Shown: positions 4,936 to 57,865, numbered from the stretch's first letter. The stretch: DNA of 64,000 bases from Eubacteriales bacterium (GCA_045658965.1 JAZOVZ010000086.1:43175-107174); one strand, 5' to 3'. The notes: a model not told the origin generated them from the letters alone. Program-made: numbers and translations.

Positions 4936-5528
4936 ATCGAATAACCCTCACTTCCAAGTTTTTCTTTCAAGGCACTTCTAATGGCGGCAAGCTCCTTGTT
5001 TACCATTGAACGGCTTAAGTTCAGATCACTTGCAATCGTGTCAATGGGATCGGCAACGTAGTACCTACTCATAAATATGAATTGTCTGCGCTCGGAAAGC
5101 GAGTGAACAAAGTTGCTGATGACGCGCCCCAGTCTCTCTGCGTCAAAATCTGCACCGACGTCCTCGTCACCGGCTACGAAATCTTCAAGCTCGGACAAAG
5201 ACACTGTCATTTCGGAAGGTATCACGTTCTGCCGCAGATTGCTGTGATAGCGTTTGATCGCAATTCTTCGTGCGATGGTCGTCAGAAATGCTTTGAGCAC
5301 ATTTGGTCTTGATGGCGGCATTGCGTTCCATGCACCAAGATATGTATCGTTCAGGCATTCCTCGCAGTCAAGCCTATCGTGAACGACATTGTAAGCAATA
5401 GAAAACAGATACTTCTTGTATTTGAAGTCGGTCTCCTCAATCGCTTTTTCATCGCGTTCCCAATAAAGCTCAACGATCTTTTCGTCGTCCATCGGCACTT
5501 TTGCCGTTTGTTTGCTTTGAAGTTCCAT
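4932..5528 (-). CDS. RNA polymerase sigma-70 family (ECF-like) factor, cassette 1
   Basis: It has a region-2-like block (ELYWERDEKAI...DCEECLNDTYLGAWNAMPPSRP) and a region-4 HTH (IDTIASDLNLSRSMVNKELAAIRSALKEKL). An RBS GGAAGGAGG sits upstream of the ATG. There are 3 paralogues in the window. Confidence 0.85.
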   Translation of the reverse strand: MELQSKQTAKVPMDDEKIVELYWERDEKAIEETDFKYKKYLFSIAYNVVHDRLDCEECLNDTYLGAWNAMPPSRPNVLKAFLTTIARRIAIKRYHSNLRQNVIPSEMTVSLSELEDFVAGDEDVGADFDAERLGRVISNFVHSLSERRQFIFMSRYYVADPIDTIASDLNLSRSMVNKELAAIRSALKEKLGSEGYSI

Positions 5529-5664
5529 AACTCGCCTCCTTCCTTGCGTATTGAAAGGCCCTTCATAAATAGTAGTACCAAAAAATTTGAAAGTGTGTAA
5601 TGATTTTTGAAAGTTTTTTATTATTATACCATAAAATTTTGTTTTTTGTGTGAATATGCAGAAA

Positions 5665-5713: not shown

Positions 5714-6349
5714 TCAAGAAAACAACCCCGTGAACCAATTCCAGGCAAAGTCGATTACGCCATACTGGTCGAGCACGTTTTTGATGCCGAGCAGGCACAG
5801 GACGATACCGCCTGCGAGCTGGGCTTTCTTCTCGTATTTGTCGCCAAACACGTTACCGATCTTGACGCCAAGCGCGGAGAGCGCGAACGTGATGATACCG
5901 ATCAGAGTTACGCTGAGCAGCACGCGAGGCACTGTCATATCGGGGCGCAATCCGTAGCCGACACCGACCACCATGGCGTCAATGCTGGTAGCAACCGCCA
6001 TGGGAAACATGACGCGCGCGGTCAGCGAAGCGTCGGTATTTTCACAGCTTGAGCAGCCGTCTTCCTGCTTTTCGAGTGCTTCCTTGATCATACCGCCACC
6101 GATGATGGCAAGCAGCACAAAGGCGATCCAACCGGTAAACATTTCAAGATAATCACCGAAAAACTTATTCAAAATACCTGCCAAGACAAAGCCGAGCGCG
6201 GGCATGAGTGCCTGAAAAGCACCGAACCAACCGCCTACAACGGCAGCCTTGCCTAAGGTTGCCTTTTGCATCGAAAGGCCCTTACAAATGGCTACGGCAA
6301 AGGCGTCCATCGCAAGTGCTACAGCCAAAATCAAAAGTTCAATTACCAT
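5714..6349 (-). CDS. mntP: Manganese efflux pump MntP
   Basis: The N-terminus MVIELLILAVALAMDAFAVAICKG and the second half-repeat MFPMAVATSIDAMVVGV are the duplicated DAF/DAM-containing helices typical of MntP (DUF204). It is a roughly 6-TM protein of 211 aa. Confidence 0.85.
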   Translation of the reverse strand: MVIELLILAVALAMDAFAVAICKGLSMQKATLGKAAVVGGWFGAFQALMPALGFVLAGILNKFFGDYLEMFTGWIAFVLLAIIGGGMIKEALEKQEDGCSSCENTDASLTARVMFPMAVATSIDAMVVGVGYGLRPDMTVPRVLLSVTLIGIITFALSALGVKIGNVFGDKYEKKAQLAGGIVLCLLGIKNVLDQYGVIDFAWNWFTGLFS

Positions 6350-7229
6350 TTTTCTCTCCGTTACTTATGTGCAATTTTTGTCCATCAACCGTTTCGACGG
6401 TCGTGTCATAAAATCTCTCCTGAAAATAGATCTCGCGGCAGATCTCGTGCGCGTCAAAGTCGCGATCCAAGGGACACGCGACCAGCTTATCTTCCACGTC
6501 ATCCGCACGGTGCACGATCGCAATCACCCTACCCGAAAAACGCTCCAAAGGCTGCTTTTCGCCAAGGCAGTACACGTCAAGCTCTTCGACGTCACCGCCC
6601 AGCACCCCCGGAATGTAACCGTAATTAACGGGATAAAGCAATTGCTTGCTTCCCTTTACGTGCAAATATCCGATCGGTCTGTCGATCTCTGCCTCAATCT
6701 GCTTGCCGAGATACGACCAAACCATCGCCTTTCGAAGCGTGTATTTAATAAAATCTGCTTTGGATTCAGTGTAGGCATTTCGGTCGTTAGGGTAACGCTG
6801 TGCAAGCTCGGTTTTGAGAGCACCGTAAGAATTGCGCACCACAGGAAATTCGGTCAGATAAGCCTTAAAATTGATATAATTGCGCCATTCCATGCTCATG
6901 TGCTTGACAACGTGAATATGTGCAGTGCGCCACTCACCCTCACCCAGCACAAAAAAGAGCTGCCATTCGTTGTCATTGGCGGGTCTGTGCCAAAATCCTG
7001 CCGCTTCCATCAAAGAAACGATCTGAGCATCAAAGGAATGCACCGCGACCGCAACGTCAATAATGGGTTTGGCGCAAAGTCCCGGCACAGACGTGCTGCC
7101 TACGTGCTCCACCGCTACGGCAAGCTCTCCAAGAGCACTCTTGATACGTGCACAGTACTGCACGCCAAGGTCTTCCCACGCATGCTCATGCGCACAAAGC
7201 CTTACAGTTCCCCTTTCAAGCCCCAGCAT
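6339..7229 (-). CDS. GrpB-domain protein fused to an inorganic-pyrophosphatase-like C-terminal domain
   Basis: The N-terminal half matches GrpB (MLGLERGTVRL..., HVGSTSVPGLCAKPIIDV). The C-terminal ~110 aa resemble a family-I PPase core (DRPIGYLH...YPVNYGYIPGVLGGDVEELDVY...DDVEDKLV). I chose ATG-7229, which is preceded by GGAGGG-ATAAT; the ORF-track start at 7250 is a TTG. The stop overlaps the mntP start by 11 nt. Confidence 0.65.
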   Translation of the reverse strand: MLGLERGTVRLCAHEHAWEDLGVQYCARIKSALGELAVAVEHVGSTSVPGLCAKPIIDVAVAVHSFDAQIVSLMEAAGFWHRPANDNEWQLFFVLGEGEWRTAHIHVVKHMSMEWRNYINFKAYLTEFPVVRNSYGALKTELAQRYPNDRNAYTESKADFIKYTLRKAMVWSYLGKQIEAEIDRPIGYLHVKGSKQLLYPVNYGYIPGVLGGDVEELDVYCLGEKQPLERFSGRVIAIVHRADDVEDKLVACPLDRDFDAHEICREIYFQERFYDTTVETVDGQKLHISNGEKNGN

Positions 7230-7338
7230 ATTATCCCTCCAAACGCACAAATCTCACATATTTTATCACAAATACTCCGTATTGTCTATAGGTTCACAAA
7301 ATATTTACATTTATTGTTAAATAATTATCACACTTTAC

Positions 7339-7367
7339 TTGACTAAAGCGATTCTTTGTAGTATAAT
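7339..7367 (+). promoter_or_regulatory. SigA-type promoter of the his operon
   Basis: TTGACT (7339-7344), a 17-nt spacer, then TATAAT (7362-7367). It lies about 35 nt upstream of the AAGGAGG RBS of hisZ. Confidence 0.7.
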
Positions 7368-7402
7368 CTTGGTATCCTTTTATTATTAAGGAGGATTTTC
7401 GA

Positions 7403-8467
7403 ATGGCAATCAACCAATATGCAATGACTCCTGCGGAACAGACCATCACCAAATGCGCCCAGCTTTATGCAAAATACGGCTATCGCAGGTTTACTATGAA
7501 TAAATTCGAAGACTATGCCCTGTATGCCGACAACAAGAACTTTTTGGTGGATGGCAGACTTTTGACCTTTACCGACGGCTCCAAGCTCAAGGCTCTCAAG
7601 CCCGATATCACACTCTCTATCGTCAAGAGCCTGGCTGCAAATCCCCGACTCCCCCTCAAGGCGTTTTATAACGAAACCGTCTACCGCGTAAAAAAGGGAG
7701 AAAAGGAATTCAGCGAGCTGCATCAGATGGGACTTGAGCTGATCGGCGACGGCTCCATTTATGCCACAAGCGAGGTGCTTGCGCTGGCAAAAACTTCGCT
7801 GGACGCAATTGACGCGCAAAACATTCTTGATATTTCGCACATGGGTATTCTCATGCCGCTGATTGATCAAGCGTGCGAAAGCGGTGCTGATCGCGACCGG
7901 TTGATCTCAATGATCACGCAAAAGAACGCGGACGGTATTGCTGCTATGCTGGGTGCAAAACATCCGCTTACGGTACTGGTGAATTCCTACGCTCCTATCG
8001 GCAAAATGATCCCCGTACTGCAAGAGATGCTGCCCGATATGCCTGCGGTAAACGAGCTTGCACAGACCGCTGACGTGCTTGGTGCAATGGGACTTGATGC
8101 GGGCGTGTATCTTGATTTCTCGCTCATGCACGATTTCGGCTACTACAACGGCATTATTTTCAAGGGATACATCAAGGACGTTCCGGTCTCCGTGCTTTCG
8201 GGCGGTCGTTACGATCCCCTGCTCGACCGTTTTGGTATCAGCACAGCCGCTCTCGGATTTGCCATTTATCTTGACTATATCCGTTACAGCGAAACCAAGC
8301 ACGATACGGACGCTCTGCTTTTGTACACCGAACAGGACAAAGCGGCAGACGTTGCTCGTGCCGTTAAGACGCTGACCGAGCAAGGATATCTTGTGCTCGC
8401 AGCGCAAACGCAGCCCGAAAACCGCAGCTTTGTCAAAGTTTTCCACGTCAAGGAGGTGCTCGCATGA
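7403..8467 (+). CDS. hisZ: ATP phosphoribosyltransferase regulatory subunit HisZ
   Basis: It is a HisRS-like paralogue without an anticodon domain (354 aa). It sits directly upstream of, and ATGA-coupled to, a short-form hisG, and is the first gene of the his operon. Confidence 0.85.
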   Translation: MAINQYAMTPAEQTITKCAQLYAKYGYRRFTMNKFEDYALYADNKNFLVDGRLLTFTDGSKLKALKPDITLSIVKSLAANPRLPLKAFYNETVYRVKKGEKEFSELHQMGLELIGDGSIYATSEVLALAKTSLDAIDAQNILDISHMGILMPLIDQACESGADRDRLISMITQKNADGIAAMLGAKHPLTVLVNSYAPIGKMIPVLQEMLPDMPAVNELAQTADVLGAMGLDAGVYLDFSLMHDFGYYNGIIFKGYIKDVPVSVLSGGRYDPLLDRFGISTAALGFAIYLDYIRYSETKHDTDALLLYTEQDKAADVARAVKTLTEQGYLVLAAQTQPENRSFVKVFHVKEVLA

Positions 8468-28023: not shown

Positions 28024-29478
28024 TTATTCAATCAGAACTTTACCATCTGTACAAATGACTTGAATTTGGTGATCGGTACAAAGAACATCTCCGCTCCCTA
28101 CATGCATAATCCATTCGGCTTTTGTACCATTATAATTTATGGTACGAAGCGTACTCTTGGAAAACGCCCAACTTCCAATAATCACGTATGGGTATGGTAT
28201 ATTAAGAATCTCAATAGTGCAGCCATAAAATGCTTTATCCTGAATTGTTTTAGTGTTTTTCGAAAGCTCTACTACATTCAAATCTTCACAACCCGAAAAC
28301 GCCTCCCAACTGATTGTCTCCAAACTAACGGGAATGATGATTTTGATCAGGCCCGATCCGTAGAACGCACCAGATCCTAAAGTTAACAAACTATCCGGCA
28401 GAGTAATTTTTTGCAGTGCTGAACAGTTTCTAAATGCGTAATCCCCAATCGTTAACACGTTTCCATTGAACGTAACCTGCTTTAGATACGCGTTAGACGA
28501 ACACATTTCCTCGGGGATATGGAGCACGTTTGATGGAATTACAATTTCTTTTAGCTTTGCATTTTTAAACGCAGCTTTTCCAATAGCGACCAAACTTTCC
28601 GGCAAATTAATGGTCTCAAGATTTGGACAGGCAAACGCATATGATCCTATTTCATTCAATCTTTCAGGCAATATCACCTCTTGCAGTCCCGTGTGATTTT
28701 CAAATGCATGATCCGCTATACTTTTGACGGGTATGCCCTCTATTTCTTCCGGAATAATCACGCGATATCGATAATCGGATTCACTCTGTGATTCATTCGT
28801 GAATCCTAAAACCACAAATAAGTCTCCACGCTCGTTCAATTGATACTGTACATCCTGATCATCCACACGAATCACACCGGGTTCTAACGGAGGCAAAGTT
28901 TCTGTTTCCGATTCAAATTCAGTATCCGTTTCCGTTTGGGTATCCGTCTCACCTATGATTGCATCAACCTCATCCTTATGATCGATATAATACTCATAAA
29001 GTCTTTCCAGGAAATCTCCAAGATCCTGCATGCTCTCGCCTACCAATCCATCGCTTTGCATGGATTGCAGCTTGTTGATGACCGAATCATCCGTACCTGC
29101 GCCGAGAGCGTTGAAGAGCTCTTCGGTAAACTTCCATTCGATCCAATTCAGCTGCAACAGACTTTGCGCAGGCGGTGTGGGTGCATCGGGATCGTCCGGA
29201 TCTGCGGGCTGCTGATCCAACGGGAACAGCACGTTCTCGATGACTTGGCTGCCCCATTCTTGCACGGGCTTGCTGCCAAGCACGATAAAAGACAGCGGCA
29301 GAGAGACAAGCAGCATGGAGAACACCAAAGCAAGGCAGGCTGCGCTGATCAGGATGCCGCGGTTTCTCTTTCGGCGTCTTGATTTGAGAATAGACAGCTT
29401 GGTTTCATACTGCACGTACTCAATGATATACTTTTGGTCAATGGCGGAAATCGCATCAATCATCACGTTTTTGTTCAT
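28024..29478 (-). CDS. Membrane-anchored sigma partner with BspA-type leucine-rich-repeat ectodomain, cassette 2
   Basis: Its ATG overlaps the sigma stop (ATGA 29475-29478). Order of parts: N-terminal IDAISAIDQKYIIEYV, a basic stretch, a TM helix (GILISAACLALVFSMLLVSLPLSFIVL), a conserved juxtamembrane module, an acidic T/E linker, then repeats of about 23 aa of the type IPxxVxxIGxxAFxxCxxLxxI (LRR_5/BspA-like). Confidence 0.7.
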   Translation of the reverse strand: MNKNVMIDAISAIDQKYIIEYVQYETKLSILKSRRRKRNRGILISAACLALVFSMLLVSLPLSFIVLGSKPVQEWGSQVIENVLFPLDQQPADPDDPDAPTPPAQSLLQLNWIEWKFTEELFNALGAGTDDSVINKLQSMQSDGLVGESMQDLGDFLERLYEYYIDHKDEVDAIIGETDTQTETDTEFESETETLPPLEPGVIRVDDQDVQYQLNERGDLFVVLGFTNESQSESDYRYRVIIPEEIEGIPVKSIADHAFENHTGLQEVILPERLNEIGSYAFACPNLETINLPESLVAIGKAAFKNAKLKEIVIPSNVLHIPEEMCSSNAYLKQVTFNGNVLTIGDYAFRNCSALQKITLPDSLLTLGSGAFYGSGLIKIIIPVSLETISWEAFSGCEDLNVVELSKNTKTIQDKAFYGCTIEILNIPYPYVIIGSWAFSKSTLRTINYNGTKAEWIMHVGSGDVLCTDHQIQVICTDGKVLIE

Positions 29479-30050
29479 AGCCCGATTCCCTCCTCTGCCA
29501 GCTTTTGTTTGAGGGATTGCTTGATGTACGCGATCTGCTTGGAGACCTTGGAGCGACTCACGCCCATTTCGCTTGCAATGTCATCGATCGACTTGCCGAA
29601 ATAGTATCTGCCAAGGAAAATATACCGTTGATCCTTGTCAAGGCTTGCAATATACGCCTCAATGACCATAGCCAGCATGCGTACATCATCGGTTTCGCGC
29701 GCATCTGCCAGCACGTCTTCCAGATCTGAGAGCGATACGGCTTGGCTCATCGCGGCTCTTTTCTGCGCCTTTTGCCTGCGACCGACCATCAAGGACTGGT
29801 TGCGGATAATGGCAGCCAAAAAGGCTTTGAGCAAATACGGACGCTCGGGCGGAATGGTGTTCCAGGCAGACAGGTAGGTGTCATTCAGGCATTCCTCACA
29901 GTCTTGCATGTCTTTTAAAATGTTATATGCCACCTTGAGCAAATACGCTCTGTATTTGTCATCGGTGTGTTTGATAGCATTCTCATTGCGCGCCCAATAT
30001 AGTGCAATGATCTCTTCGTCACTCAGAATGCGGACGTAATTCGTTTCCAT
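29475..30050 (-). CDS. RNA polymerase sigma-70 family (ECF-like) factor, cassette 2
   Basis: ALYWARNENAIKHTDDKYRAYLLKVAYNILKDMQDCEECLNDTYLSAWNTIPPERP plus a C-terminal HTH (IDDIASEMGVSRSKVSKQIAYIKQSLKQKL). Confidence 0.85.
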   Translation of the reverse strand: METNYVRILSDEEIIALYWARNENAIKHTDDKYRAYLLKVAYNILKDMQDCEECLNDTYLSAWNTIPPERPYLLKAFLAAIIRNQSLMVGRRQKAQKRAAMSQAVSLSDLEDVLADARETDDVRMLAMVIEAYIASLDKDQRYIFLGRYYFGKSIDDIASEMGVSRSKVSKQIAYIKQSLKQKLAEEGIGL

Positions 30051-30141
30051 ATCGTTCTCCTTTCAGCATCCTTCACCCTTATAGATGCGTTTTTTTAGAA
30101 AAAGTGTACGGTTTTGCTAAAATTTTTTTATTTTTTTAAAA

Positions 30142-30173: not shown

Positions 30174-31142
30174 TTATTCCTCTCTCTTGCCAACCTCGCG
30201 CAGAATTTCAAGCGCGGGCACGGGGATACGTCCTAAGTGGTCGGGGCCTACGTTGAGCAGGTAGTTGACGCCGCGGTCGTTGAGGTGTTTCTTGATGCGA
30301 ATGACCTCGTCGGCATTCTTCCAGTTATCGTCGAAATACTTAAAGCCCCAGGTATCGTTGAGCGTGGTGGGAGATTCCACCAGAATATCCTCCATATACT
30401 CATTGGGGATGACATTGTCGCCCATGGATACGTAGTCGCCAAGTCCGTTACCAATGCGGGAATTCAGCAGGCATTCGGGCTGCAGCTCCTTGACAAGATC
30501 GCGCAATTCCTTGGATTGCTCGGGCGTGATCTGAAAAGGCGTATCACACCAAAGCAGGCAAATATCGCCGTACTTGGTCAAAATTTCGCGGATCTGCGGC
30601 AGGATCTTTGCGCGGAAGCATTGCTCGTAATTCTTTTGATCGTCGTTCGGGAAATCCCAGTTGTTGGTCCAATGCGTGTCGTCAATATTGAGGTGCGAGG
30701 GGTGATAACCGCCACCGTTGGGCTCGTGCCAATCAAGCTCCTGCGAATAATACAGACCCAGCTTCAGACCGTGCTTTTTGCAAGCCGCAGCGATCTCACC
30801 GATCACGTCTCTGCCAAAGGGCGTTGCGTCCACCACGTTGTAGTTGTCGTACTCGGATTTGAACATGCAAAAACCGTCGTGGTGCTTACTGGTCACGACC
30901 ATGTAATTCATGCCCGCATCCTTGGCAAGCTTGACCCATTCCTCGGCGTCAAAATAAATGGGATTGAACGCCTTTGCAAGCTGCGAGTATTCCTCGTTCG
31001 GAATACGGAAATACGCCTGCGCCCATTCTGCGATCATGCCGATGCGCTTTCCGCGGTGCTCCCCTGCCAGCAGCGAATACAGACCCCAGTGGATCATCAA
31101 ACCGAATTTAGCCTCTTTTTTGAACCATTCCTTATTGGTCAT
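30174..31142 (-). CDS. Alpha-L-fucosidase, GH29 catalytic domain, no signal peptide
   Basis: FGLMIHWGLYSLLA...EWVKLAKDAGMNYMVVTSKHHDGFCMFKS...YN are hallmark GH29 blocks. It is 322 aa and starts directly with MTNKEWFKKE, with no hydrophobic leader. Confidence 0.85.
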   Translation of the reverse strand: MTNKEWFKKEAKFGLMIHWGLYSLLAGEHRGKRIGMIAEWAQAYFRIPNEEYSQLAKAFNPIYFDAEEWVKLAKDAGMNYMVVTSKHHDGFCMFKSEYDNYNVVDATPFGRDVIGEIAAACKKHGLKLGLYYSQELDWHEPNGGGYHPSHLNIDDTHWTNNWDFPNDDQKNYEQCFRAKILPQIREILTKYGDICLLWCDTPFQITPEQSKELRDLVKELQPECLLNSRIGNGLGDYVSMGDNVIPNEYMEDILVESPTTLNDTWGFKYFDDNWKNADEVIRIKKHLNDRGVNYLLNVGPDHLGRIPVPALEILREVGKREE

Positions 31143-31146
31143 TGCC

Positions 31147-31731
31147 TTACTCTCCTATCTTACCGTTATATGTAAAGAATTTGGTGTTATATGCATATGC
31201 GACCTCTGCGTCACCCAAGCGTCTGACTATATAAAACTTGTCACCGCGCAACGAGGTGTTCTCCAGCCCCTTGGGCGAGATGTACATTTCCTTACTCCAA
31301 GCGTACAGCGTTTCGATCTCGGGCACACGCCATTGCGAGTTATAGAATTTGAACACGGTCACGCTCTTGGTATAGTGCATCCTGTTCCCGCCTCTGGTAT
31401 AGCTACGTTGCACGTGCGGCTCATACACGGTTTCCTGATCGATATGCGAAAGCGTGTCGATCTCTACGACAAAATCACAATTATGCTCGACCTCAAACAC
31501 AACATCATTGTCGGCTTGATTTTGCTTGAAATATAAGTAAATCGGCACGATAGCAACAAGACCGATCAGCACACCAAGCAACACGTGCACGTAAATGCCC
31601 GCCGCCAAAGCCGCAGCAGCAATCGGCATTACCCAAACCAGTGTTTTGTTATCGTTATTTTTCGCTTTTTTGACTTCATTGCCCAGCACGTCACGGCGAA
31701 TCGCCTCGTCTGTCAATATCTCTTTGGTCAT
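31147..31731 (-). CDS. Hypothetical 2-TM membrane protein, paralogue 1 of 3
   Basis: A charged N-terminus, 2 TM helices (VWVMPIAAAALAAGIYVHVLLGVLIGLVAIVPIYLYF), then a roughly 110-aa soluble domain ending GDKFYIVRRL...YNTKFFTY. The SD for the fucosidase gene (GGAGAG) lies in its last codons. Confidence 0.7.
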   Translation of the reverse strand: MTKEILTDEAIRRDVLGNEVKKAKNNDNKTLVWVMPIAAAALAAGIYVHVLLGVLIGLVAIVPIYLYFKQNQADNDVVFEVEHNCDFVVEIDTLSHIDQETVYEPHVQRSYTRGGNRMHYTKSVTVFKFYNSQWRVPEIETLYAWSKEMYISPKGLENTSLRGDKFYIVRRLGDAEVAYAYNTKFFTYNGKIGE

Positions 31732-31737
31732 ATCGTT

Positions 31738-32304
31738 TTACTCCTTATATACAAAGAACTTTTCGCTGTACAGATCCACGACCGTTTGCGGATCGTTTTT
31801 CATGGTGACAACGATATATGTATCACCGTATTCGGACATCTGCAGCCAGACCGATAATCTTGACGGGCAGCTTGAGCCGTTTCGCTTATCATGGTAAATG
31901 CGATATTCCTTGCCGCCCTCAAAGGAAACGACATCATAACCGTAATCCCTCAAGGAATGCCACGGGTCAAACTCCACGAAGCTTAAAAACTTGGCGCGCT
32001 CAATGACGACCTGCGAGCCGTCCTCGTTTTTGACCGCGCGGATCAGCGTAACCGTTTTGTATATCAGATATGCGCATACCGCTGCAAGCGCCAGCATAAC
32101 AACGCCGCAAAACGCCATAAAACCCACCGCTTGATCTGCGGGCTCTTTTGCAAGCTCTTTGAACAGCCGGGATGCAAAGATCGCAAACACGATTGCCGTG
32201 ATCACGCCTGCCGCACCGTATATCGGGAAATAGAAATACGCGCCGCGGTTGAATTTTTTAAGCAGCATTTCCCTTGTAATAACTTCTCTTCTGTCTTCTT
32301 GCAC
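31738..32304 (-). CDS. Hypothetical 2-TM membrane protein, paralogue 2 of 3
   Basis: I reassigned the start to GTG-32304, which is preceded by GGAGGG-ATAAC and lies 1 nt after the stop of the upstream paralogue. The ORF-track TTG-32337 would overlap by 32 nt. It has 2 TM helices and a C-terminal domain ending GDTYIVVTM...YSEKFFVY. Confidence 0.65.
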   Translation of the reverse strand: MQEDRREVITREMLLKKFNRGAYFYFPIYGAAGVITAIVFAIFASRLFKELAKEPADQAVGFMAFCGVVMLALAAVCAYLIYKTVTLIRAVKNEDGSQVVIERAKFLSFVEFDPWHSLRDYGYDVVSFEGGKEYRIYHDKRNGSSCPSRLSVWLQMSEYGDTYIVVTMKNDPQTVVDLYSEKFFVYKE

Positions 32305-32305
32305 G

Positions 32306-32890
32306 TTATCCCTCCGTTCCTTGTGCCATATCGTCAACGTATTCGTACATTGCCTCGGGATAAATCATCTGCAGCTCCCAGCTCTTTTTCTGATAGATCA
32401 CCAAAATAAAAGACTGCCCCACGCCGAACTTGTCGCGTGCGCGGTTTTTCTCGGACTCTGTCCACAGCCCCTCTTTCATGGTAAAGGTGTTTCCGCGCGC
32501 AAATTCAAACACGTCGTATTCGATTTCTTTTAACGTGTGCGTGCGGTGGCTGTAATAGGTTTCCACGCACTTGCGCACTTCGGTCAGCGTGTCAATCACC
32601 ACGGTGACGTCGCCTTCCATAATGCTCTGCTTCTTTTGGTGCATTTCCCCAACCCGCCTGAAGCCTCCATAGAGCAAAACAGGTATTGCGGCACAAGGTA
32701 TAATGCCAAAAACAAAGCCACCCAATCTGTTGACGTCGCTCCACATCCAGTTTGCCACGAAAAGCATGACCAAAAAAGGGACGCACGCACCGAACGAGAT
32801 AGCGATCATCATACCGAATTTGTCGGTCGCGCGCTCAGTCATGGTACGCAATATATCGGATTTTTTGAGTATTTTTCTCTGCTCTTCCAT
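32306..32890 (-). CDS. Hypothetical 2-TM membrane protein, paralogue 3 of 3
   Basis: I set the start at ATG-32890 (MEEQRKILKK), preceded by AAGGAGAAGCGC. The ORF-track start at 32965 lies upstream of the mapped promoter. It has 2 TM helices and a C-terminal domain ending GQSFILVIY...YPEAMYEY. Confidence 0.7.
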   Translation of the reverse strand: MEEQRKILKKSDILRTMTERATDKFGMMIAISFGACVPFLVMLFVANWMWSDVNRLGGFVFGIIPCAAIPVLLYGGFRRVGEMHQKKQSIMEGDVTVVIDTLTEVRKCVETYYSHRTHTLKEIEYDVFEFARGNTFTMKEGLWTESEKNRARDKFGVGQSFILVIYQKKSWELQMIYPEAMYEYVDDMAQGTEG

Positions 32891-32923: not shown

Positions 32924-32952
32924 ATTATACCAAATACACACACAAATGTCAA
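32924..32952 (-). promoter_or_regulatory. SigA-type promoter of the 3xTM-protein/fucosidase operon
   Basis: On the minus strand: TTGACA (32952-32947), a 17-nt spacer, then TATAAT (32929-32924). Confidence 0.75.
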
Positions 32953-32973: not shown

Positions 32974-32999
32974 GCCCCGACGGGAAATCCCGTCGGGGC
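32974..32999 (-). terminator. Rho-independent terminator of sigma/LRR cassette 3
   Basis: GCCCCGACGGG (32974-32984) pairs with CCCGTCGGGGC (32989-32999). On the minus strand it is followed by ATCTCTTTTTGTTG. Confidence 0.8.
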
Positions 33000-33012: not shown

Positions 33013-35343
33013 TTAAGCAATTGTTTCACCGTCCGTACAAACAACGGTGATATTAATATAATTAAAACCTACAAAATTGATTTGCCGCCACTCTTCCAAC
33101 GTGCCTTCGTAGTAGATATGCGTCATAGAATCGCAGCCTTTGAATGCGGATTTTCCAATCGTTTTCACACTTACGGGTATCGTAATCGATTCTAACTGCT
33201 TTGCATCGTAAAACGCAAAGGTTTCGATCTTTTCGATCCCTGCGGGCACAACGTAATCCACTACACCGGAATAACTGAAGGTACTCTCGGGAATATTCAC
33301 GATGCGTTCGGGGAATACGACCTCTTGAATATTGTCGCAATATTGAAAGAGTCGCTTACCGATCGTGTCCACGGAGTCGGGAAATGCAATATAGGTCAAG
33401 GCGTTGCAATACTCAAATGCATTATTACCGATCTTTCTCAAACTACTGTTCTCTGCAAAATGCACATCGGTCAGCGAAACGCATCTGTTAAACGCGTCAT
33501 CTCCGATGCTGACTACGTTTGCTCCAATATTCACGGTCTTCAAGCTCCGACAAAGGAAAAACGCACTTTTGCCGATCGAATTGATCGAGCTGCTTAACTC
33601 AAGCTGCTCCAAAGAGGTACAGCCGTAGAATGCGCTTCCGCCGATATTTTTCACGCCTTTTTCAAGCACAACCGTTTTGAGCGCAGTACAGTCCATAAAT
33701 GCCGAGGTTGGAATGGATTCAAGGCTTCCGGGAATCGTCAGCTCCACAAGAGACGTGCATTCCTTGAAGGCATCGACCTCCATGACCTTCAGATCGTTTG
33801 GCAGCACCAGCTTCTGTAATTTCATGCATCCGGAAAATGCATGCTCGCGGATGGTTCGGTATTCCACAGTTGCGGGATCGCCATCCTCAAACACAACCTC
33901 CTCAAGATACGAGCACTCGTCAAACGTATACTTTTCAATAGTGGCAACACCCTTGGGGATGTGCACACGCTTCAGCGATGAGCATCTATGGAAGGCGCGT
34001 TCACCAAGCGTAACCAGTCCGCCTGGAAGATCAGCGCTGACCAATGCTTTGCAATCCTTGAAGGCATCGTTTTCAATGGTGTGTACAGAATCGGGCAGAT
34101 CTATGCTGCGCAAAGAAAGACATCCATTAAACGCGCTTTCTCTGATATGCTCAAGCGTGTCGGGAAGGCTGACCGAGTAAAGCACATTACACGCATTGAA
34201 CATATTGGCATTCAGAATCTTGATCGGTGCAAGGATTTCCACTTGGACGACTCCGGACGCTGCAAAGATTTCTCCGTCAAGCTCAGTACAGCTTTCGGGG
34301 ATGGTAAACTCTGTCAGTTCCCTGCAATTTTTGAATACTCTGACACCGATCGACTGCAAATTAGGTGAGCAGTATACTTCTTTTAGGAAAATGCACCCCA
34401 TAAACAATTCGTGCTCCAGCGCAATGACGCTGTCGGGGATATGAATACTCTTAAGTGATGAGCAATTCACAAAGGCTTGCTGCCCGATGGTTTGCAGGCT
34501 TTCGGGCAACGTAATATTAGACAATTTTGTGCAATCGCGGAAGGCTTCCCTACCGATCGCGCTCACACCATCGGGAATATAGATCTCTTCAATATCGGTC
34601 TTTCGAAAAGCCTCCTCCCAAATCTCGGTAACGGGCTTTCCGTCGTAGGTAACGGGAATGATGATGACCTTATCCGTGCAATCTCCTATACCTGATACGG
34701 CATAGCTTTCACCGCCCGACAGTTCCTTGTACTTAAGCCCTTTGCTTCCATCCACATCATAACTCGGGTCGGGCTCGGGCTCGGGCTCGGGCTCGGTTTC
34801 GGATTCCTGCTGGCTTTCGGTCTCCTTTTCATCAGGCGGTAAATCCGTACCGTCTTTATGCTTCAGGTAATACTCATAAAGCTTGGCAAGGAACTCTCCA
34901 AGGCTTTGCATGCTATCGCCTGCAAGCGTACCGCCTTGCATGGATTGCATCTTATCAATGACAGAATCCTCGGTGCCCGCTCCTAAAGCATTAAAGAATT
35001 CCTCTGCGAATTTCCATTCGACCCAATTGATCAGCAGGTCCTCGGGGTTGATATTCTCCCCGTCGTCAGTTTCCTTATCAAGCGGGAACAGGATATTCTC
35101 CACGCCCTCGGATACGGCTGAGTTGATCTTTTCCGCATTGAAGACGTAAATAAGCGGTACAGACGTGATAAGCAGCGCGAAAATCAATATCATTGCAACG
35201 GCAGCGGCAAGCAAAGTCACCAGATATTTTTTGGTTTTGCCTGTCCTGCGGCGGCTGCGCAATCTTTGATCCATAAGCACGTAGGACTCCAGCAGTTCGG
35301 GATCGATCATGCCTACGGCATCAAACAACATGGCTTTTTTCAT
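33013..35343 (-). CDS. Membrane-anchored sigma partner with long BspA-type LRR ectodomain, cassette 3
   Basis: It overlaps the sigma stop as ATGA (35340-35343). Order of parts: N-terminal FDAVGMIDPELLESYV, a basic stretch, a TM helix (YLVTLLAAAVAMILIFALLITSVPLIYVF), a juxtamembrane module shared with cassette 2 (ENILFPLD...INWVEWKFAEEFFNALGAGTEDSVIDKMQSMQ...LYEYYLKHKD), an acidic EPEPEPEP linker, then more than 20 LRR_5-like repeats (ITLPESLQTIGQQAFVNCSSLKSIHIPDSV...). Confidence 0.75.
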   Translation of the reverse strand: MKKAMLFDAVGMIDPELLESYVLMDQRLRSRRRTGKTKKYLVTLLAAAVAMILIFALLITSVPLIYVFNAEKINSAVSEGVENILFPLDKETDDGENINPEDLLINWVEWKFAEEFFNALGAGTEDSVIDKMQSMQGGTLAGDSMQSLGEFLAKLYEYYLKHKDGTDLPPDEKETESQQESETEPEPEPEPDPSYDVDGSKGLKYKELSGGESYAVSGIGDCTDKVIIIPVTYDGKPVTEIWEEAFRKTDIEEIYIPDGVSAIGREAFRDCTKLSNITLPESLQTIGQQAFVNCSSLKSIHIPDSVIALEHELFMGCIFLKEVYCSPNLQSIGVRVFKNCRELTEFTIPESCTELDGEIFAASGVVQVEILAPIKILNANMFNACNVLYSVSLPDTLEHIRESAFNGCLSLRSIDLPDSVHTIENDAFKDCKALVSADLPGGLVTLGERAFHRCSSLKRVHIPKGVATIEKYTFDECSYLEEVVFEDGDPATVEYRTIREHAFSGCMKLQKLVLPNDLKVMEVDAFKECTSLVELTIPGSLESIPTSAFMDCTALKTVVLEKGVKNIGGSAFYGCTSLEQLELSSSINSIGKSAFFLCRSLKTVNIGANVVSIGDDAFNRCVSLTDVHFAENSSLRKIGNNAFEYCNALTYIAFPDSVDTIGKRLFQYCDNIQEVVFPERIVNIPESTFSYSGVVDYVVPAGIEKIETFAFYDAKQLESITIPVSVKTIGKSAFKGCDSMTHIYYEGTLEEWRQINFVGFNYINITVVCTDGETIA

Positions 35344-35924
35344 ACCGTGTAGCCCTCCTTTTCAAGTGCACTTTTCAAGGAAGTCCTGATGTAGGCAACG
35401 TCTGCATTGACCGTAGAGCGTGCAACGCCAAGCACCTGCGCGATCTCGTCAAGCGGTTGCGCATCGTAATAACGGGCAAAGAATACGTATCTCTTTCGTT
35501 CGTCCAGCGTGCGCAGCCATGCGCTGATCACCTCGGCAAGCTGCGCTGCATCACTTTCGGTGTAATCATCGCCATCCTCAAGGGCATATCCCTGCAGATC
35601 CTCAAAGGATGCAACAAAGCATGGGGGTATGCTCTTTTTGCGGTGCTTTTGTCGGTAGCGGTCAATTGCCTGATTACGCATGATGCTGCCAACAAAGGCT
35701 TGCAGCACGCGCGGTCGCTTGGGCGGAATGGCATTCCATGTGTCTAAATAGGTGTTGTTAAGGCATTCCTCACTATCCTGCATATCCTGCAGGACGTTAT
35801 ATGCCGTCCTGAGCAGATAATTGCGATATTTTTGATCCGTATGCTTGATCGCGGCTTCATCCCGCGCCCAATACAGCTCAATGATCGCTTCATCGCTGAG
35901 CATATAGCTGTTTTCTTGCTTCAT
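35340..35924 (-). CDS. RNA polymerase sigma-70 family (ECF-like) factor, cassette 3
   Basis: ELYWARDEAAIKHTDQKYRNYLLRTAYNVLQDMQDSEECLNNTYLDTWNAIPPKRP plus an HTH (LDEIAQVLGVARSTVNADVAYIRTSLKSALEKE). An RBS AAAGGAG is present. Confidence 0.85.
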   Translation of the reverse strand: MKQENSYMLSDEAIIELYWARDEAAIKHTDQKYRNYLLRTAYNVLQDMQDSEECLNNTYLDTWNAIPPKRPRVLQAFVGSIMRNQAIDRYRQKHRKKSIPPCFVASFEDLQGYALEDGDDYTESDAAQLAEVISAWLRTLDERKRYVFFARYYDAQPLDEIAQVLGVARSTVNADVAYIRTSLKSALEKEGYTV

Positions 35925-36007
35925 AATGCTTCTCCTTTATATGTCCTTCACCTATATAGACGATGATTTGTCGGGAAATGTCCGACGTTTTTTGAAATTT
36001 TTTCAAA

Positions 36008-37461: not shown

Positions 37462-38196
37462 TTACTGTCCAAATCCGCCCATAAGGCCGCCAAGCTGTCC
37501 GTATCCGGGAATCATTTCTTCCAGAATGCCGTCCATATATCCGTCATTCCCCTTCATGGCGTTATATACCGAGTCGTAAATGGCATCGTATATCGCGCCG
37601 CCCACAACCTCATTAATGCGTTCCACAACCGAGTTTGCCACAGCCTCTGCGGTTTTATCTGCGATGTAGTCGCGCAAATCGTCCTCATTGTCCTCGGGCA
37701 GCTGCTCCTCGGTGGTCTCCTCATCCGTCGGCTGTTCGGTGGTTTGCTCGGTCTTTTCAAAATTATCCTCGATCCAAGCCTTGATCAGCCCTTTGATAAA
37801 CTCAGAGGTCGTGCTGCTGCCTATGTAAAGATCCAACACCTCGGTGATGATCTCCTTATAGTCATAGTCACCGTTGCCAAGTCCGCCAAGTGAACCAAGC
37901 AGATCCTCTACTATGCCGCCGTACTCGGTGGTCACTTCTTCCTCGGTGGTAGGCTCTTCGGTCGTTTGCTCGAACTTACCAATTGCTTCTAAGATCGACT
38001 CTGCCATCTCATTCTTGAGCTCCTCGATCTCTTGCTCGGAAAGCTCGGGTTCGGTCTCTATTTCAGTCTCTCTTTCGGTCTCGCGTTCTGTTTCCTTGGG
38101 GTCGTCTTTATTATCCTTGTCACCGCATGCGGCAAGCACGGATACAGTCATCAGCAACACAAGCAGCAATGCAACAAGTCTCAAATACTGTTTCAT
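37462..38196 (-). CDS. Acidic lipoprotein of unknown function
   Basis: I set the start at ATG-38196 ([26 protein letters not shown]), which gives a signal peptide plus lipobox. The mature protein is very acidic ([25 protein letters not shown]...) and has a Gly-rich tail ([14 protein letters not shown]). Its stop lies 23 nt upstream of asnS. Confidence 0.7.
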
Positions 38197-38243
38197 ATGT
38201 ATGCTGTTCCTTTCTCTTATCAGGTATTTGTAAAACAACTATC

Positions 38244-38354: not shown

Positions 38355-40298
38355 TTATTGCAGGTATTCCACGGTGCAGGACACCGAGGTTGAGTCGAAC
38401 GAGTTATGCCCGTTTTTGTTGAGTACGATGGCAATGCGGTCACCGCTTTGCACGTCGATATCGATCGTTTGCTCGTCAACTCGCCCTGTGGGCAAGAAGA
38501 CGTAACCGCCCTCTGCATCCAGAACGTGCTCTCCGTTCAAAAGCAACGCATACTTGACGCCGTCTCCCTCTTCGGAATTGACGCCTATGACAAAGCTGAC
38601 ACACACCTTGCCGCTCTTGGGTGCTTCAAACACCAACGCGCTGTCGTATTCGTCGGGGTGCATCGCGCCGCTCATGATCAGCGTAAAAGTTCCCTCGATC
38701 GCCCAGCGGTTGTTGGCGGTATCAAAGCTCAATTCACCAAACTCACCGCGCTTCTTGTCATAGCTCATATAGAACCAGCCGTCCTTACCCTGCTCTGTAC
38801 TAAAGCTGCTGGGGAAGGAATAGACCGCCAAGGGCTGATCGATCGTCTTGTCGGTCAGATCGTCTATAATGCGGAGCTTAACAAATTCACCCTTGGTTGC
38901 AAGTGCGTAGTAGCGCGTGATGAATACACCGGGCGTGCCCTTGCGCAAATGGTCGGTCAGAGAGATATCCATAGTCAGATCCGTCTTGGTCGTATCGATG
39001 ACCTCGGGGGCGTTGTCGCCCAACCACGTATCGATGAGCTGTTTCCATACCCACTCATATTCGCGGTATTTCTGATCGATCTCCCAGTTGGCAATACTCA
39101 CATAGGTACAGCCTCTGCCATACGCATCCATGCCCTGCTCCAGATAGTTTTCGGGAGTAGCTGCGACCTGAACGGGTCCGTCGATCTCCTGCGCAAGCAT
39201 GACGTGCGGCGGGAAGGTCGCGTGTGCATGGTCCATGGAAAACTCATGATCGGTCAGAGGACCGTCGTCGATCCACACCACGTCGGCATGCTCGGCAAGA
39301 TCGCCTGCAGCCAGCGTGCAACGCAGAAGAGATGCAGTATCGTAGATGCTGCCGAACTGCAGCGCGTACTTGGAATCGGGGCTGATCTGCTTTTGCACAA
39401 TTGCCAGCGAGTCGATCATTTCCTTGAGCTTTTGATGGCGGAACTGATACCAAAGCTGACCGAGATTATCCGATGCCGTGCAGGACGGAGGCTGAATCTG
39501 ATCAAAGGAGGCATATTCCGTACCCAAAACGCAGTTCAAAGCGTCAATATCGGTATATTTTTCCTGCAAGAACGCACGGAACTGTGCTTTTGCAGGATCG
39601 GAATAATCGTATTCCCCTGCGCACCAGTATTCACTCTCGGCAAACTGCGAGAATGCGGGGAGATAGAACAACACGTCCTCTGCATACAAAGCCTCGTACC
39701 GTTCAACAGCCGCCGCATAGAAATTCACAGCGGAGCTGACCGCGCTCTCGGAGCAAAACGAGATCATGGTACGCATACCGTCGATCGAGCCGCCCTGGCA
39801 AAGGTTGCCGTTCGGGTCATACTGCATCTGATCCAAGGGAATGATCTTATCGTCAGCACGGCGGGTCAGGTCGATCGAAATCGCCACCTTAAGCCCCTTA
39901 GTCTTGACAACGTAATTGATCATGTCGTCAAATGCGGCAAAATCGTACTCGCCTGCTTTGGTTGACTCCACGCGACTCCACGGAATGTGCACCTTGATCG
40001 CATTAAAGCCGGTCTTGGCAGCCTCGTCCACGATCTGCTCAAAAGCGTCTTGGGTCATGGGGGTAAAATTCCAGATGCGGTAAACGAAATAGCGTTCTCC
40101 AACGTTGCGCGGCTGATCCATGGGTATTACCTCCTGCGTAGTCTCTTCCCCGGTAGGTTGCCCGGTTTGCGTCTGCACGTTCTGCTCGGGCTGCGTTGTC
40201 TGCTCACTTCCCTGCTCGGGATGCGTTTGGCAGGCAACTGCACCGATCGTCAGTATGCAAAGTAAAAGGCAAAGTGCTCTTGCTCGAAAGTTTCTCAT
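38355..40298 (-). CDS. Secreted lipoprotein, clan GH-A (GH42-like) glycoside hydrolase candidate
   Basis: A lipobox signal peptide (ALCLLLCILTIGAVAC) and a Q/T/E-rich linker are followed by a TIM-barrel-like block, GFNAIKVHIPWSRVESTKAGEYDFAAFDDMINYVVKTKGLKV...FRAFLQEKYTDIDALNCVLGTEYASFDQI, which is reminiscent of GH42 N-terminal domains. I chose ATG-40298 (RBS AAGAGG); the ORF-track start at 40304 is a GTG. Confidence 0.5.
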   Translation of the reverse strand: MRNFRARALCLLLCILTIGAVACQTHPEQGSEQTTQPEQNVQTQTGQPTGEETTQEVIPMDQPRNVGERYFVYRIWNFTPMTQDAFEQIVDEAAKTGFNAIKVHIPWSRVESTKAGEYDFAAFDDMINYVVKTKGLKVAISIDLTRRADDKIIPLDQMQYDPNGNLCQGGSIDGMRTMISFCSESAVSSAVNFYAAAVERYEALYAEDVLFYLPAFSQFAESEYWCAGEYDYSDPAKAQFRAFLQEKYTDIDALNCVLGTEYASFDQIQPPSCTASDNLGQLWYQFRHQKLKEMIDSLAIVQKQISPDSKYALQFGSIYDTASLLRCTLAAGDLAEHADVVWIDDGPLTDHEFSMDHAHATFPPHVMLAQEIDGPVQVAATPENYLEQGMDAYGRGCTYVSIANWEIDQKYREYEWVWKQLIDTWLGDNAPEVIDTTKTDLTMDISLTDHLRKGTPGVFITRYYALATKGEFVKLRIIDDLTDKTIDQPLAVYSFPSSFSTEQGKDGWFYMSYDKKRGEFGELSFDTANNRWAIEGTFTLIMSGAMHPDEYDSALVFEAPKSGKVCVSFVIGVNSEEGDGVKYALLLNGEHVLDAEGGYVFLPTGRVDEQTIDIDVQSGDRIAIVLNKNGHNSFDSTSVSCTVEYLQ

Positions 40299-40313
40299 GC
40301 GCACCTCTTATTA

Positions 40314-56456: not shown

Positions 56457-57092
56457 CTAATCAAACAGTTTGAAATTACCAAAGCCGGACACCTCAACTA
56501 TGTTTTCCACATGATCCAACGATGAAAACAATGCACTGTAATCTATCGTGATTTTATATTCACCCGGTTCTTTCGGTAAAGTATCCACAACCGTTCCGTT
56601 CACCGTAATCACCAATTCAACGTCTTTTACTTCATGACCATTGTCGGGTCTGTAATTTTTTGAGGGTGTAACAATGTCATATAGTTGTACTTTTTGGCGT
56701 CCAACCCCGTGCTCATCCGTCCATTCCTCCGTTACAATAAAGCCTCCGAATTTGAAATAAATTTGTGAGTCTTTTTCTTTTACAAGTGTAAAACTGCATG
56801 TATGGTTCTCCGTATCAACACTATGAAACGTCAGAGAACCGGCACTGTTCTGCACGGTTGCGCCAACGTAATAATATCTCAAAGTTTCTGATCCGATGAT
56901 ATCTTGAATATACGGGATCATAAGCGCACCCAATGCAATCACTACACAAATGCTCGCGGCAATTGCAGACCATTTCCACACGTGCGTTTTGCGTTTAGGT
57001 CTATGCCGCAGCCGATCCTTTTGCTGCAAATGCTGCGCAAGAATATCCGCATCCAGATATCCGACGGCATCCATGAAAATATCTTTATTCAT
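56457..57092 (-). CDS. Membrane-anchored sigma partner (short ectodomain), cassette 4
   Basis: It overlaps the sigma stop as ATGA (57089-57092). The N-terminus FMDAVGYLDADILAQHLQQKDRLRHRPKRK is followed by a TM helix (WSAIAASICVVIALGALMIPYI) and a roughly 140-aa beta-rich ectodomain. Confidence 0.65.
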   Translation of the reverse strand: MNKDIFMDAVGYLDADILAQHLQQKDRLRHRPKRKTHVWKWSAIAASICVVIALGALMIPYIQDIIGSETLRYYYVGATVQNSAGSLTFHSVDTENHTCSFTLVKEKDSQIYFKFGGFIVTEEWTDEHGVGRQKVQLYDIVTPSKNYRPDNGHEVKDVELVITVNGTVVDTLPKEPGEYKITIDYSALFSSLDHVENIVEVSGFGNFKLFD

Positions 57093-57679
57093 ACAAAAAT
57101 ATCATTCCTTTCCAAGTGTGATTTTAGTCCCTGCTTGATCTTATCGATCTCTCGATACACGGTTGCAGGCGAGATTTTCAGATCGGCGGCGATGGTCTCC
57201 ACCGATTCCGACAAATAGAATCGGTCGATAAATATGTAGCGTTGGCGGTCGGGCAGCGTCTTGACGTAGTCGTTAATGATCTTCCCTACCTCTGCTGCCT
57301 CGTATGCCGCTTCTACCGAGTCACCGTGATACAGCGTGCCCTGCGCATCTTCCAAAGCAACTGTCAGCTCGGACGGGATGCGCTTTTTGCTTGTTTTTTC
57401 CCTGTAGCGATTGATTGCAATGCGTCGCATGATCTGCACAAGAAACGCTCCAAGCACTGCAGGTCTTGTGGGTGGGATGGCATTCCACGCGCCAAGGTAG
57501 GTGTCGTTTTGGCATTCCTCAGAGTCCTGTCGGTCGTGCAGCATATTGTTGGCGATGCGAAACAGAAATTGCCCGAATTTTTTGTCGGTTTCCTGTATTG
57601 CATTCTCCTGCCGTGTCCAATACAGCTCGATGATCTGCTCGTCAGCCATCACCGTCTGTTGTTCAGTGCGTTTGCTCAT
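57089..57679 (-). CDS. RNA polymerase sigma-70 family (ECF-like) factor, cassette 4
   Basis: ELYWTRQENAIQETDKKFGQFLFRIANNMLHDRQDSEECQNDTYLGAWNAIPPTRP plus an HTH (VETIAADLKISPATVYREIDKIKQGLKSHL). Confidence 0.85.
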   Translation of the reverse strand: MSKRTEQQTVMADEQIIELYWTRQENAIQETDKKFGQFLFRIANNMLHDRQDSEECQNDTYLGAWNAIPPTRPAVLGAFLVQIMRRIAINRYREKTSKKRIPSELTVALEDAQGTLYHGDSVEAAYEAAEVGKIINDYVKTLPDRQRYIFIDRFYLSESVETIAADLKISPATVYREIDKIKQGLKSHLERNDIFV

Positions 57680-57865
57680 GTTTGCCTCCCTTCGTTTTGG
57701 TAGAAAGCGCTTTCATAAATGTATGTCAAGAAATTCTTGGATTTTTCTCATATTTTTCAAATTTTCTAAAAATTTTTTATTCGCGCCCTTGCAGATCCTT
57801 CGCTACGCTCGAGGATGACATATCCGCTGCGCGGATACGTCGCAAGGGCTTGGGAACAGAATAAT

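Follow-up and report, generated by a model that had tools for sequence, protein, structure and literature searches.

Results

Organization of the sigma/partner unit

In the present study, we analyzed a 64,000-nt stretch of DNA from Eubacteriales bacterium (GCA_045658965.1 JAZOVZ010000086.1:43175-107174), referred to below as the window, with coordinates counted from its first letter. The subject is a two-gene unit consisting of a gene for an extracytoplasmic function (ECF)-type sigma factor and a downstream gene for a 776-aa membrane protein with a leucine-rich repeat (LRR) ectodomain (Table 1). The sequence of the downstream product, hereafter the partner, strongly suggests a single-pass regulator of the anti-sigma type. 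A preliminary description of this DNA had placed the sigma and partner open reading frames (ORFs) at 33013-35924 with an ATGA overlap, and this was borne out by the ORF coordinates and by the junction sequence ACGGT-ATGA-AAAAA, in which the sigma TGA and the partner ATG share 4 nt. The partner start is preceded, at a distance of 8 nt, by the ribosome-binding site AAGGAGG.

The sigma/partner pair lies between a putative promoter of its own and a strong terminator and, therefore, constitutes a bicistronic operon; asnS, which is located upstream, is closed by its own terminator. The window contains four sigma/partner cassettes, two of them with LRR partners, and comparable terminators end all four, with the same layout throughout.

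The 194-aa sigma factor is of the canonical ECF (group 4) type, with sigma2 and sigma4 domains only. It matched Sigma70_r2 (35.3 bits), r4 (32.3 bits), and r4_2 (30.7 bits), all above the Pfam cut-offs, as well as Sigma70_ECF in Pfam (27.9 bits, cut-off 21.1) and TIGR02937 (65.9 bits, cut-off 42.9). Its identity to the three paralogues in the window is 43-48%, and the nearest solved structure is that of SigW from B. subtilis (5wuq, E=2.8e-4).

Table 1. Coordinates of the sigma/partner cassettes and associated elements in the window
Feature	Position	Strand	Details
ECF-type sigma gene	35340..35924	-	194 aa
Partner gene	33013..35343	-	776 aa; single-pass (N-in) putative anti-sigma with LRR ectodomain
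Partner residues 1-34	35242..35343	-	Conserved cytoplasmic module, putative sigma-binding element; helices 4-11 and 15-31 predicted
Partner residues 35-68	35140..35241	-	Basic stretch (RRRTGKTKK) and transmembrane helix YLVTLLAAAVAMILIFALLITSVPLIYVF; contains conserved xAA
Partner residues 69-165	34849..35139	-	Extracytoplasmic juxtamembrane domain; conserved only among LRR-type partners (14 aligned); predicted helical
Partner residues 166-200	34744..34848	-	Acidic low-complexity disordered spacer (ETESQQESETEPEPEPEPDP...); pLDDT <50 in both models
Partner residues 201-776	33016..34743	-	BspA-type LRR_5 solenoid, ~23 repeats
Putative ECF-type promoter of the LRR-776 cassette	35955..35986	-	GTCGGAC-N17-CGTCTATA, ~30 nt before the sigma ATG
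Intrinsic terminator	32974..32999	-	11-bp stem, 10 G-C pairs, T-run; 14 nt past the partner stop
Sigma-70 promoter of the following genes	32924..32952	-	Perfect TTGACA-17-TATAAT
Recently exchanged segment	33000..34950	-	98-100% nucleotide identity to L002 ~5950..7900
Second sigma/LRR cassette	28024..30109	-	Sigma 29475..30050; 484-aa LRR_5 partner 28024..29478; terminator
Promoter of the second cassette	30081..30109	-	GTACAC-N15-GCATCTAT
Third cassette	3412..5599	-	Sigma 4932..5528; 507-aa partner 3412..4935, Pfam-less ectodomain
Promoter of the third cassette	5573..5599	-	TACACAC...GGTACTA
Fourth cassette	56457..57679	-	Sigma 57089..57679; 211-aa partner 56457..57092

N-terminal module of the partner and its conservation with the sigma factor

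The N-terminus of the partner, MKKAMLFDAVGMIDPELLESYVLMDQRLRSRRRTGKTKK, is followed by a hydrophobic helix of approximately 29 residues; the basic stretch occupies residues 35-39 and the transmembrane (TM) helix residues 40-68. All four partners in the window share M-K-K-x4-D-A-v-g-x-I-D-x-d-l-l-E-x-y-v...r-L, a K/R-rich stretch, and a single hydrophobic helix, in agreement with the earlier description of a short cytoplasmic N-terminus, a basic stretch, and a single TM helix shared with the other three sigma partners. The two helices of residues 1-34 were predicted with a predicted local distance difference test score (pLDDT) of ~74-77.

The four sigma paralogues in the window were scanned against one genome per GTDB species, which yielded at least 565 relatives; the 79 loci kept were all from metagenome-assembled genomes of uncultured gut Clostridia/Eubacteriales/Oscillospiraceae. 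The window and these 79 loci together provided 105 sigma ORFs, every one of which (105/105) is overlapped by a downstream ORF. With four exceptions, of which three were read at -35 (TTG start) and one at -7, the two ORFs share 4 nt, and each of the 105 downstream products carries the N-terminal motif, the basic stretch, and the TM helix. Their ectodomains fall into more than 25 unrelated clusters, almost all of them without a Pfam domain, with LRR_5 ectodomains in 14 of the 105 loci, and those of most family members are just 100-450 aa long.

For the converse search, a profile was built from the first 62 residues of each of the four partners in the window and compared exhaustively with 1.84 billion representatives. 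It found 547 clusters (50% identity), 70 of them at E<=1e-10; among the 150 clusters listed, nearly all are matched from residue 1 onward. Four profile-found clusters, three of the LRR type and one not, were looked up, and all four directly follow an ECF sigma gene with the same overlap. The family is visible through this exhaustive profile search; a word-indexed homologue search with residues 1-220 returned only five close fragments. LRR_5, the sole convincing Pfam domain among the long family representatives, was present in 19 of 76, and, thus, the LRR-type partner represents a recurrent major branch rather than an accident of one genome. Tandem sigma/LRR cassettes, two or three in number, were also noted in L003 (2857, 4973, 7154), L005 (4997, 7929), L006 (1476, 4595), and L084, a direct arrangement pointing to expansion by tandem duplication.

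An xAA motif within the TM helix, at residues 41-47, was detected in 101 of the 105 partners and in 136 of 142 independent family representatives, and its alignment columns are near-invariant; in the 776-aa partner, it reads LAA/AAA at residues 45-48. In the RsgI anti-sigma factors of C. thermocellum, XAA motifs of the TM helix are ClpXP recognition tags that are exposed by RseP cleavage (PMC12203970), and the Ala-Ala of xAA would, by analogy, fit such a tag after site-2 cleavage. The motif extends to xAA(C) in the cytoplasm-proximal part of the helix (window ~35203..35223), with AAC in 84 of the 105 partners. A lipoprotein reading of this conserved AAC as a lipobox was ruled out, since the hydrophobic helix around the Cys is uninterrupted and at least 15 hydrophobic residues follow.

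Co-variation of the sigma factor with the N-terminal module and exchange of ectodomains

Sigma identity was compared with the identity of the N-terminal 34 aa and with ectodomain similarity across 5460 locus pairs. The correlation with the N-terminus (Spearman rho 0.66; partial 0.63 given the ectodomain) was much higher than that with the ectodomain (rho 0.30; partial 0.17). N-termini that are at least 75% identical are joined to unrelated ectodomains in 114 pairs, in the eight listed of which the sigma factors are 84-89% identical, and 115 pairs combine related ectodomains with N-termini less than 35% identical. The sigma factor evolves with the N-terminal module and not with the ectodomain, a pattern expected of a sigma-binding module and, in part, of a segment encoded beside the sigma gene.

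The locus itself provides an example. L002, in which asnS, the sigma gene, and the partner gene are arranged as in the window, belongs to another species-level bin; its nucleotide identity to the window is 84-94% in asnS, 67-82% in the sigma gene and the 5' end of the partner gene, 98-100% across the LRR-coding 1.7 kb, and ~80% just past the stop; the two sigma proteins are 78% identical. The LRR array at the same locus of L004, a closer relative with a sigma factor 89% identical, is unrelated and shorter (33% identity, 540 aa). The nucleotide pattern relative to L002 points to a recent event, either recombination or horizontal transfer, that moved the ectodomain cassette between species. A 97%-identical locus is present on contig JAZNCE010000120.1 of assembly JAZNCE01.

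Promoters of the cassettes

The ECF-type element GTCGGAC-N17-CGTCTATA occurs once in the 64-kb window and only four times in 750 kb of related loci, where each copy precedes an orthologous sigma gene by ~30 nt; it is kept in the orthologous loci L001, L002, L004, and L005, with a variant in L003. A survey of the regions 5' of the 105 sigma genes revealed that the -35/-10-like elements are subfamily-specific and switch together with the subtype of the sigma factor and N-terminus. The elements are GTCGGAC and CGTCTATA in the LRR-776 subtype, GTACAC and GCATCTAT in the LRR-484 subtype, TTACACAC and GGTACTACTAT in a third, TTTACAG and GTCGACTGTAT in a fourth, and GTGAGCC and GCGACTATTA in a fifth. 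In regular-expression searches of the window and the 750 kb of related loci, each motif sits only before its own sigma gene, apart from one antisense match described below. Subtype-specific promoters are a hallmark of autoregulated ECF sigma factors with distinct specificities, and the cassette is apparently autoregulatory.

The antisense match, at 33961..33989 (+) within the 776-aa LRR gene, is an exact copy of GT[AG]CAC-N15-GCATCT[AG]T, the consensus of the sigma factor of the second LRR cassette. In 814 kb, this consensus otherwise occurs only 5' of the LRR-484 sigma subtype, with a chance expectation of ~0.07. The element may be a candidate antisense promoter by which one cassette represses the other, or a coincidence.

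Most family promoters also carry the near-palindromic TGAAGGGCCTTTCA directly 3' of the -10-like element, in the predicted 5' leader; it is found at 5552..5565 (-) and 57703..57715 (-) and in many related loci, and the two LRR cassettes have GTGAAGGA in its place. This element could be a 5' stem-loop or an operator.

Ectodomain of the partner

The preliminary description had assigned more than 20 BspA-type repeats to the partner, and approximately 23 units, each of ~23 aa, were counted between residues ~228 and ~757. The match to LRR_5 (E=3.8e-129) extends over four stretches, and AlphaFold2 (AF2) gave a confident solenoid for residues 201-776 (pLDDT ~80-90). The best fold matches in the PDB (Foldseek) were 4fs7 (E=3e-17), 4gt6, PcpA (4cp6), 4h09, and TpLRR (6mlx), i.e., BspA-type LRR surface proteins of gut and oral bacteria, and Toll-like receptor ectodomains appeared among the weaker matches. 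The similarity in NCBIfam was to HupY/LrrG. No wall-anchor motif was found at the C-terminus. The 776-aa sequence had no exact record in the database, in which the closest name was 'leucine-rich repeat domain-containing protein'.

Between the membrane and the repeats lie a juxtamembrane domain and an acidic spacer, the length of which varies among relatives. The juxtamembrane consensus is VENILFPLD...LINWVEW.F.E.FNALGAGTEDSVID...LYEYYLKHKD, also given as VENILFPLD...LINWVEW...ALGAGTEDSVID...LYEYYLKHKD, and the domain includes invariant alignment columns. Helices were predicted by AF2 at residues 111-120, 128-134, and 140-163 (pLDDT 75-81), and the domain had no Pfam match and no fold match. 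A SEAL domain, which mediates autoproteolysis of the RsgI type, was set aside because AF2 gives only helices at residues 69-165 (pLDDT 56-81), in a model of moderate confidence.

Neighboring genes

The partner of the second sigma/LRR cassette also matched LRR_5 (E=1e-49). Directly upstream of that cassette is a gene for a GH29 alpha-L-fucosidase (30174..31142, -), and a GH42-like beta-galactosidase gene is located near the cassettes (38355..40304, -); a GH123 gene adjoins a related cassette in locus L082 (2389..5028). These flanking glycoside hydrolase (GH) genes suggest a host-glycan-degrading lifestyle and hint weakly at what the LRR receptors might respond to.

Three successive genes at 31147..32890 (-) are transcribed from the perfect TTGACA-17-TATAAT promoter past the terminator of the LRR-776 cassette. 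Each product has ~195 aa, with hydrophobic segments near the N-terminus that apparently span the membrane and a domain of ~100 aa at the C-terminus; none had a meaningful Pfam match, and no similarity among them was detectable. Unannotated genes also lie 3' of the cassette in the syntenic locus L080. On the other side, the gene at 37462..38238 (-) encodes a 258-aa protein without a Pfam family, the N-terminus of which resembles that of a lipoprotein (LAAC) and the body of which is of low complexity and extremely acidic, with TE/EE repeats. This is the least conserved gene of the syntenic block (59-72% nucleotide identity to L002).

Discussion

Regarding the partner, the preliminary description had favored a regulator of the anti-sigma type over an ordinary secreted adhesin, and four lines of evidence now back this view: the invariable coupling to a sigma gene, the co-variation of the sigma factor with the N-terminus, the xAA motif, and the ECF-type, apparently autoregulatory promoter. 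The architecture of the pair, its coupling, and its conservation across the family were observed directly, and the N-terminus of the partner very probably regulates the sigma factor by direct binding. What is most likely new here is the combination of a minimal cytoplasmic module of ~30 aa with an LRR ectodomain; the logic of a sigma factor controlled by a single-pass anti-sigma factor is familiar.

In the mechanism that we envisage, the sigma factor would drive its own operon from GTCGGAC-N17-CGTCTATA, and the co-translated partner would insert with its N-terminus inside, where the 34-residue two-helix module would hold the sigma factor at the membrane. The helical juxtamembrane domain, an acidic disordered spacer able to span the wall, and a surface-exposed solenoid of 23 repeats would lie outside the cell. 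As in RsiW, RsiV, and RsgI (PMC4183432, PMC10556640, PMC12203970), to which we draw an analogy, engagement or loss of the LRR ectodomain would allow its removal at site 1. A site-2 protease would then cut the TM helix near xAA, as in those systems, and ClpXP would degrade the stub, by which the sigma factor would be freed. Within 64 kb, no promoter of this type is visible apart from that of the cassette itself, and, thus, activation would first yield more sigma factor and more LRR protein. We infer ligand sensing by the LRR, and the probability of the full model, in which an autoregulated ECF sigma/anti-sigma cassette with a ligand-sensing LRR ectodomain belongs to a large uncharacterized family of uncultured gut Clostridia, appears to be evenly balanced.

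Several results weigh against this model. The N-terminal module of ~30 residues has no detectable similarity to known anti-sigma domains in Pfam, NCBIfam, or the PDB. The preliminary description had named zf-HC2, RsgI_N, and DUF4179 as candidate families, and neither these nor other Pfam/NCBIfam families matched the N-terminus. The N-terminal 70 aa of the 776-aa partner had no match in Pfam/NCBIfam at E<=10, nothing meaningful was obtained there with 70 or 200 aa at permissive E-values, and no anti-sigma family was detected in any of the four window partners; DUF4179 gave only a non-significant match (E=0.051), over the TM helix of one paralogue. A profile of 51 N-termini compared with the PDB gave chance matches only (E>=0.79). 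The class I or zinc-binding anti-sigma domain (ASD), with ~80 aa, four helices, and often HxxxCxxC, was not recognizable in a cytoplasmic part of only ~34 aa. The AF2 model of residues 1-200, based on a 26-sequence alignment, is only moderate (pLDDT 66, predicted template modeling score 0.40), and Foldseek found no fold for it, with nothing below E=5.9. The co-variation of the sigma factor with the N-terminus is partly expected from linkage: the N-terminus is encoded next to the sigma gene, and, thus, recombination separates it less often than the ectodomain. Mutual information between columns of the sigma factor and those of the partner shows no more than a weak trend (cytoplasmic 0.33 vs. 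TM 0.23), which phylogeny confounds, with the top pairs mostly in sigma4. Lastly, the short probe GGAC-N15-19-CGTCT by itself was not rarer than chance in one window; the promoter is supported by being conserved in orthologous loci.

The same data may be accounted for by homeostatic display, in which the LRR protein is an adhesin payload and its N-terminus sequesters the sigma factor for negative feedback, such that shed or degraded LRR protein is replaced without ligand-triggered signaling. We assign this explanation a limited, rather low probability. It is consistent with the cassette's own promoter being the only detectable target in the 64 kb and in the 750 kb of related loci, which are as far as the promoter evidence reaches, short of a wider regulon. 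It is also consistent with the strictly bicistronic operon, with the solved LRR_5 proteins being surface or adhesin proteins, and with the LRR cassette being exchanged between species and replaced among close relatives in the manner of a variable surface antigen. However, the short ectodomains of most family members have no adhesin-like features, and the known single-pass anti-sigma factors with large ectodomains, RsgI and RsiV, are sensors. Homeostatic display overlaps with the sensing model and differs from it solely in the release trigger.

Two further explanations assign another role to the N-terminus. The partner would be an ordinary exported LRR surface protein if its N-terminus were a cleaved long signal peptide or anchor and the sigma factor a co-transcribed activator without protein-protein regulation. 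BspA-type proteins are usually annotated as secreted, the closest database name refers only to an LRR domain, and the sequence contains a weak (-3,-1) site (ITS/V) at the outer end of the hydrophobic segment. Nevertheless, a 34-residue motif precedes the basic stretch in 105/105 partners and 547 clusters, whatever the ectodomain, and export needs no such motif; the hydrophobic segment of ~29 residues has the length of a TM helix, the N-terminus co-varies with the sigma factor, and xAA is conserved. Furthermore, signal-peptidase cleavage is compatible with anti-sigma function because signal peptidase acts as the regulated site-1 protease for RsiV and RsiP (PMC4183432, PMC8844934). Ordinary export is, thus, very unlikely. 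In the other explanation, which is unlikely, the module would resemble FecR and act as a pro-sigma element or activator, with the released fragment being needed for sigma activity. N-terminal fragments of FecR-type regulators are required for the activity of FecI-type sigma factors. The coupling and co-variation would suit such a role equally well, and known inhibitory anti-sigma domains do not resemble this very short module. The partner has no similarity to FecR, however, and the degron-like xAA suggests that the stub is destroyed and not kept (PMC12203970).

Considering known systems, the analogy to SigI/RsgI drawn in the preliminary description is fair as logic and does not extend to family membership. 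RsgI of cellulolytic clostridia and Bacillus comprises an N-terminal anti-sigma domain, a TM helix, a SEAL autoproteolytic domain, an intrinsically disordered region (IDR), and a C-terminal sensor such as a carbohydrate-binding module. SigI/RsgI and the present family share several paralogous cassettes, apparently autoregulated in the present family, of a sigma factor and a single-pass partner per genome. They also share the order of a cytoplasmic module, TM helix, juxtamembrane domain, disordered spacer, and swappable binding domain, in which the acidic spacer before the LRR resembles the RsgI IDR (PMC10556640); xAA in the TM helix is a further likeness (PMC12203970). In contrast, the sigma factor here is a canonical sigma2-sigma4 ECF factor and not of the sigmaI type, the partner has no RsgI_N match in Pfam or NCBIfam, its juxtamembrane domain is predicted to be all-helical and not of the alpha/beta SEAL fold, and its sensor fold is LRR_5. 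The main text of the report on the SEAL domain counts seven domain types appended to RsgI-like anti-sigma factors and does not mention LRR (PMC10556640).

A second comparison concerns the sigmaW/RsiW, sigmaV/RsiV, and sigmaP/RsiP systems of Bacillus, to which the closest solved sigma factor, SigW, belongs. RsiW, RsiV, and RsiP are single-pass anti-sigma factors that are destroyed by regulated intramembrane proteolysis, a fate with which the xAA motif and the topology of the present partner are consistent. The co-transcription of an ECF sigma factor with a single-pass N-in partner and the alanine-rich TM helix are common to these systems and to the cassettes described here, whereas the cytoplasmic module here has only ~30 aa, without a zinc-binding or ASD signature, and the partner lacks the DUF4179/RsiV ectodomain. 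The ectodomain of RsiV is a direct receptor for a macromolecule, lysozyme (PMC4183432, PMC5014341).

The fold and repeat type of the ectodomain are those of the BspA-type LRR_5 proteins, including BspA of T. forsythia, pneumococcal PcpA, HupY/LrrG of group B Streptococcus, TpLRR of T. pallidum, and the Joint Center for Structural Genomics structures 4fs7, 4gt6, and 4h09. The partner differs from these proteins in that its LRR array is the C-terminal extracellular part behind a sigma-coupled N-terminal module, in that it has no wall-anchor, choline-binding, or type IX secretion system domain, and in being encoded in an ATGA-coupled operon with an ECF sigma factor. Toll-like receptors and plant LRR receptor kinases are analogous in topology, in which an LRR solenoid outside the cell is joined through a single TM helix to a cytoplasmic element in control of transcription; the sequence, repeat subtype, and signaling chemistry are unrelated, and no homology is implied. 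In full-text literature searches, no report was found that connects anti-sigma or ECF factors to BspA/LRR ectodomains and none that describes the N-terminal module, and the word 'leucine' is absent from the ECF reclassification paper, which was not checked for 'LRR'.

A broader picture is possible, though not probable: uncultured gut Clostridia may possess a large receptor toolkit built on a chassis of a sigma factor, a 34-aa anti-sigma module, and a TM helix, with at least five to six promoter specificities and swapped, unrelated ectodomains. In the LRR branch, the solenoid would act at the surface as the receptor of a macromolecule from the host, the diet, or microbes, which would make it a bacterial equivalent of Toll-like or plant LRR receptors as regards topology and logic; LRR cassettes would be mobile between species, and one sigma factor may silence the other LRR gene via the antisense promoter (33961..33989). 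The near-identical LRR segment shared with L002 despite diverged sigma genes shows that ectodomains are exchangeable cassettes under their own selection.

The putative sigma-binding module of ~30 residues is absent from the Pfam and NCBIfam libraries searched, and the compact sigma/partner/promoter cassettes with their distinct promoter motifs are candidate parts for synthetic biology. Gut and oral bacteria have BspA-type LRR proteins in abundance, and the usual view of these proteins is that of passive adhesins; a recurrent LRR subclass is now seen to be linked, at the level of both genes and domains, to an ECF sigma factor of its own. Should this linkage be regulatory, transcription would respond directly to engagement of the LRR at the cell surface, and a large class of 'hypothetical' LRR proteins would acquire a testable function.

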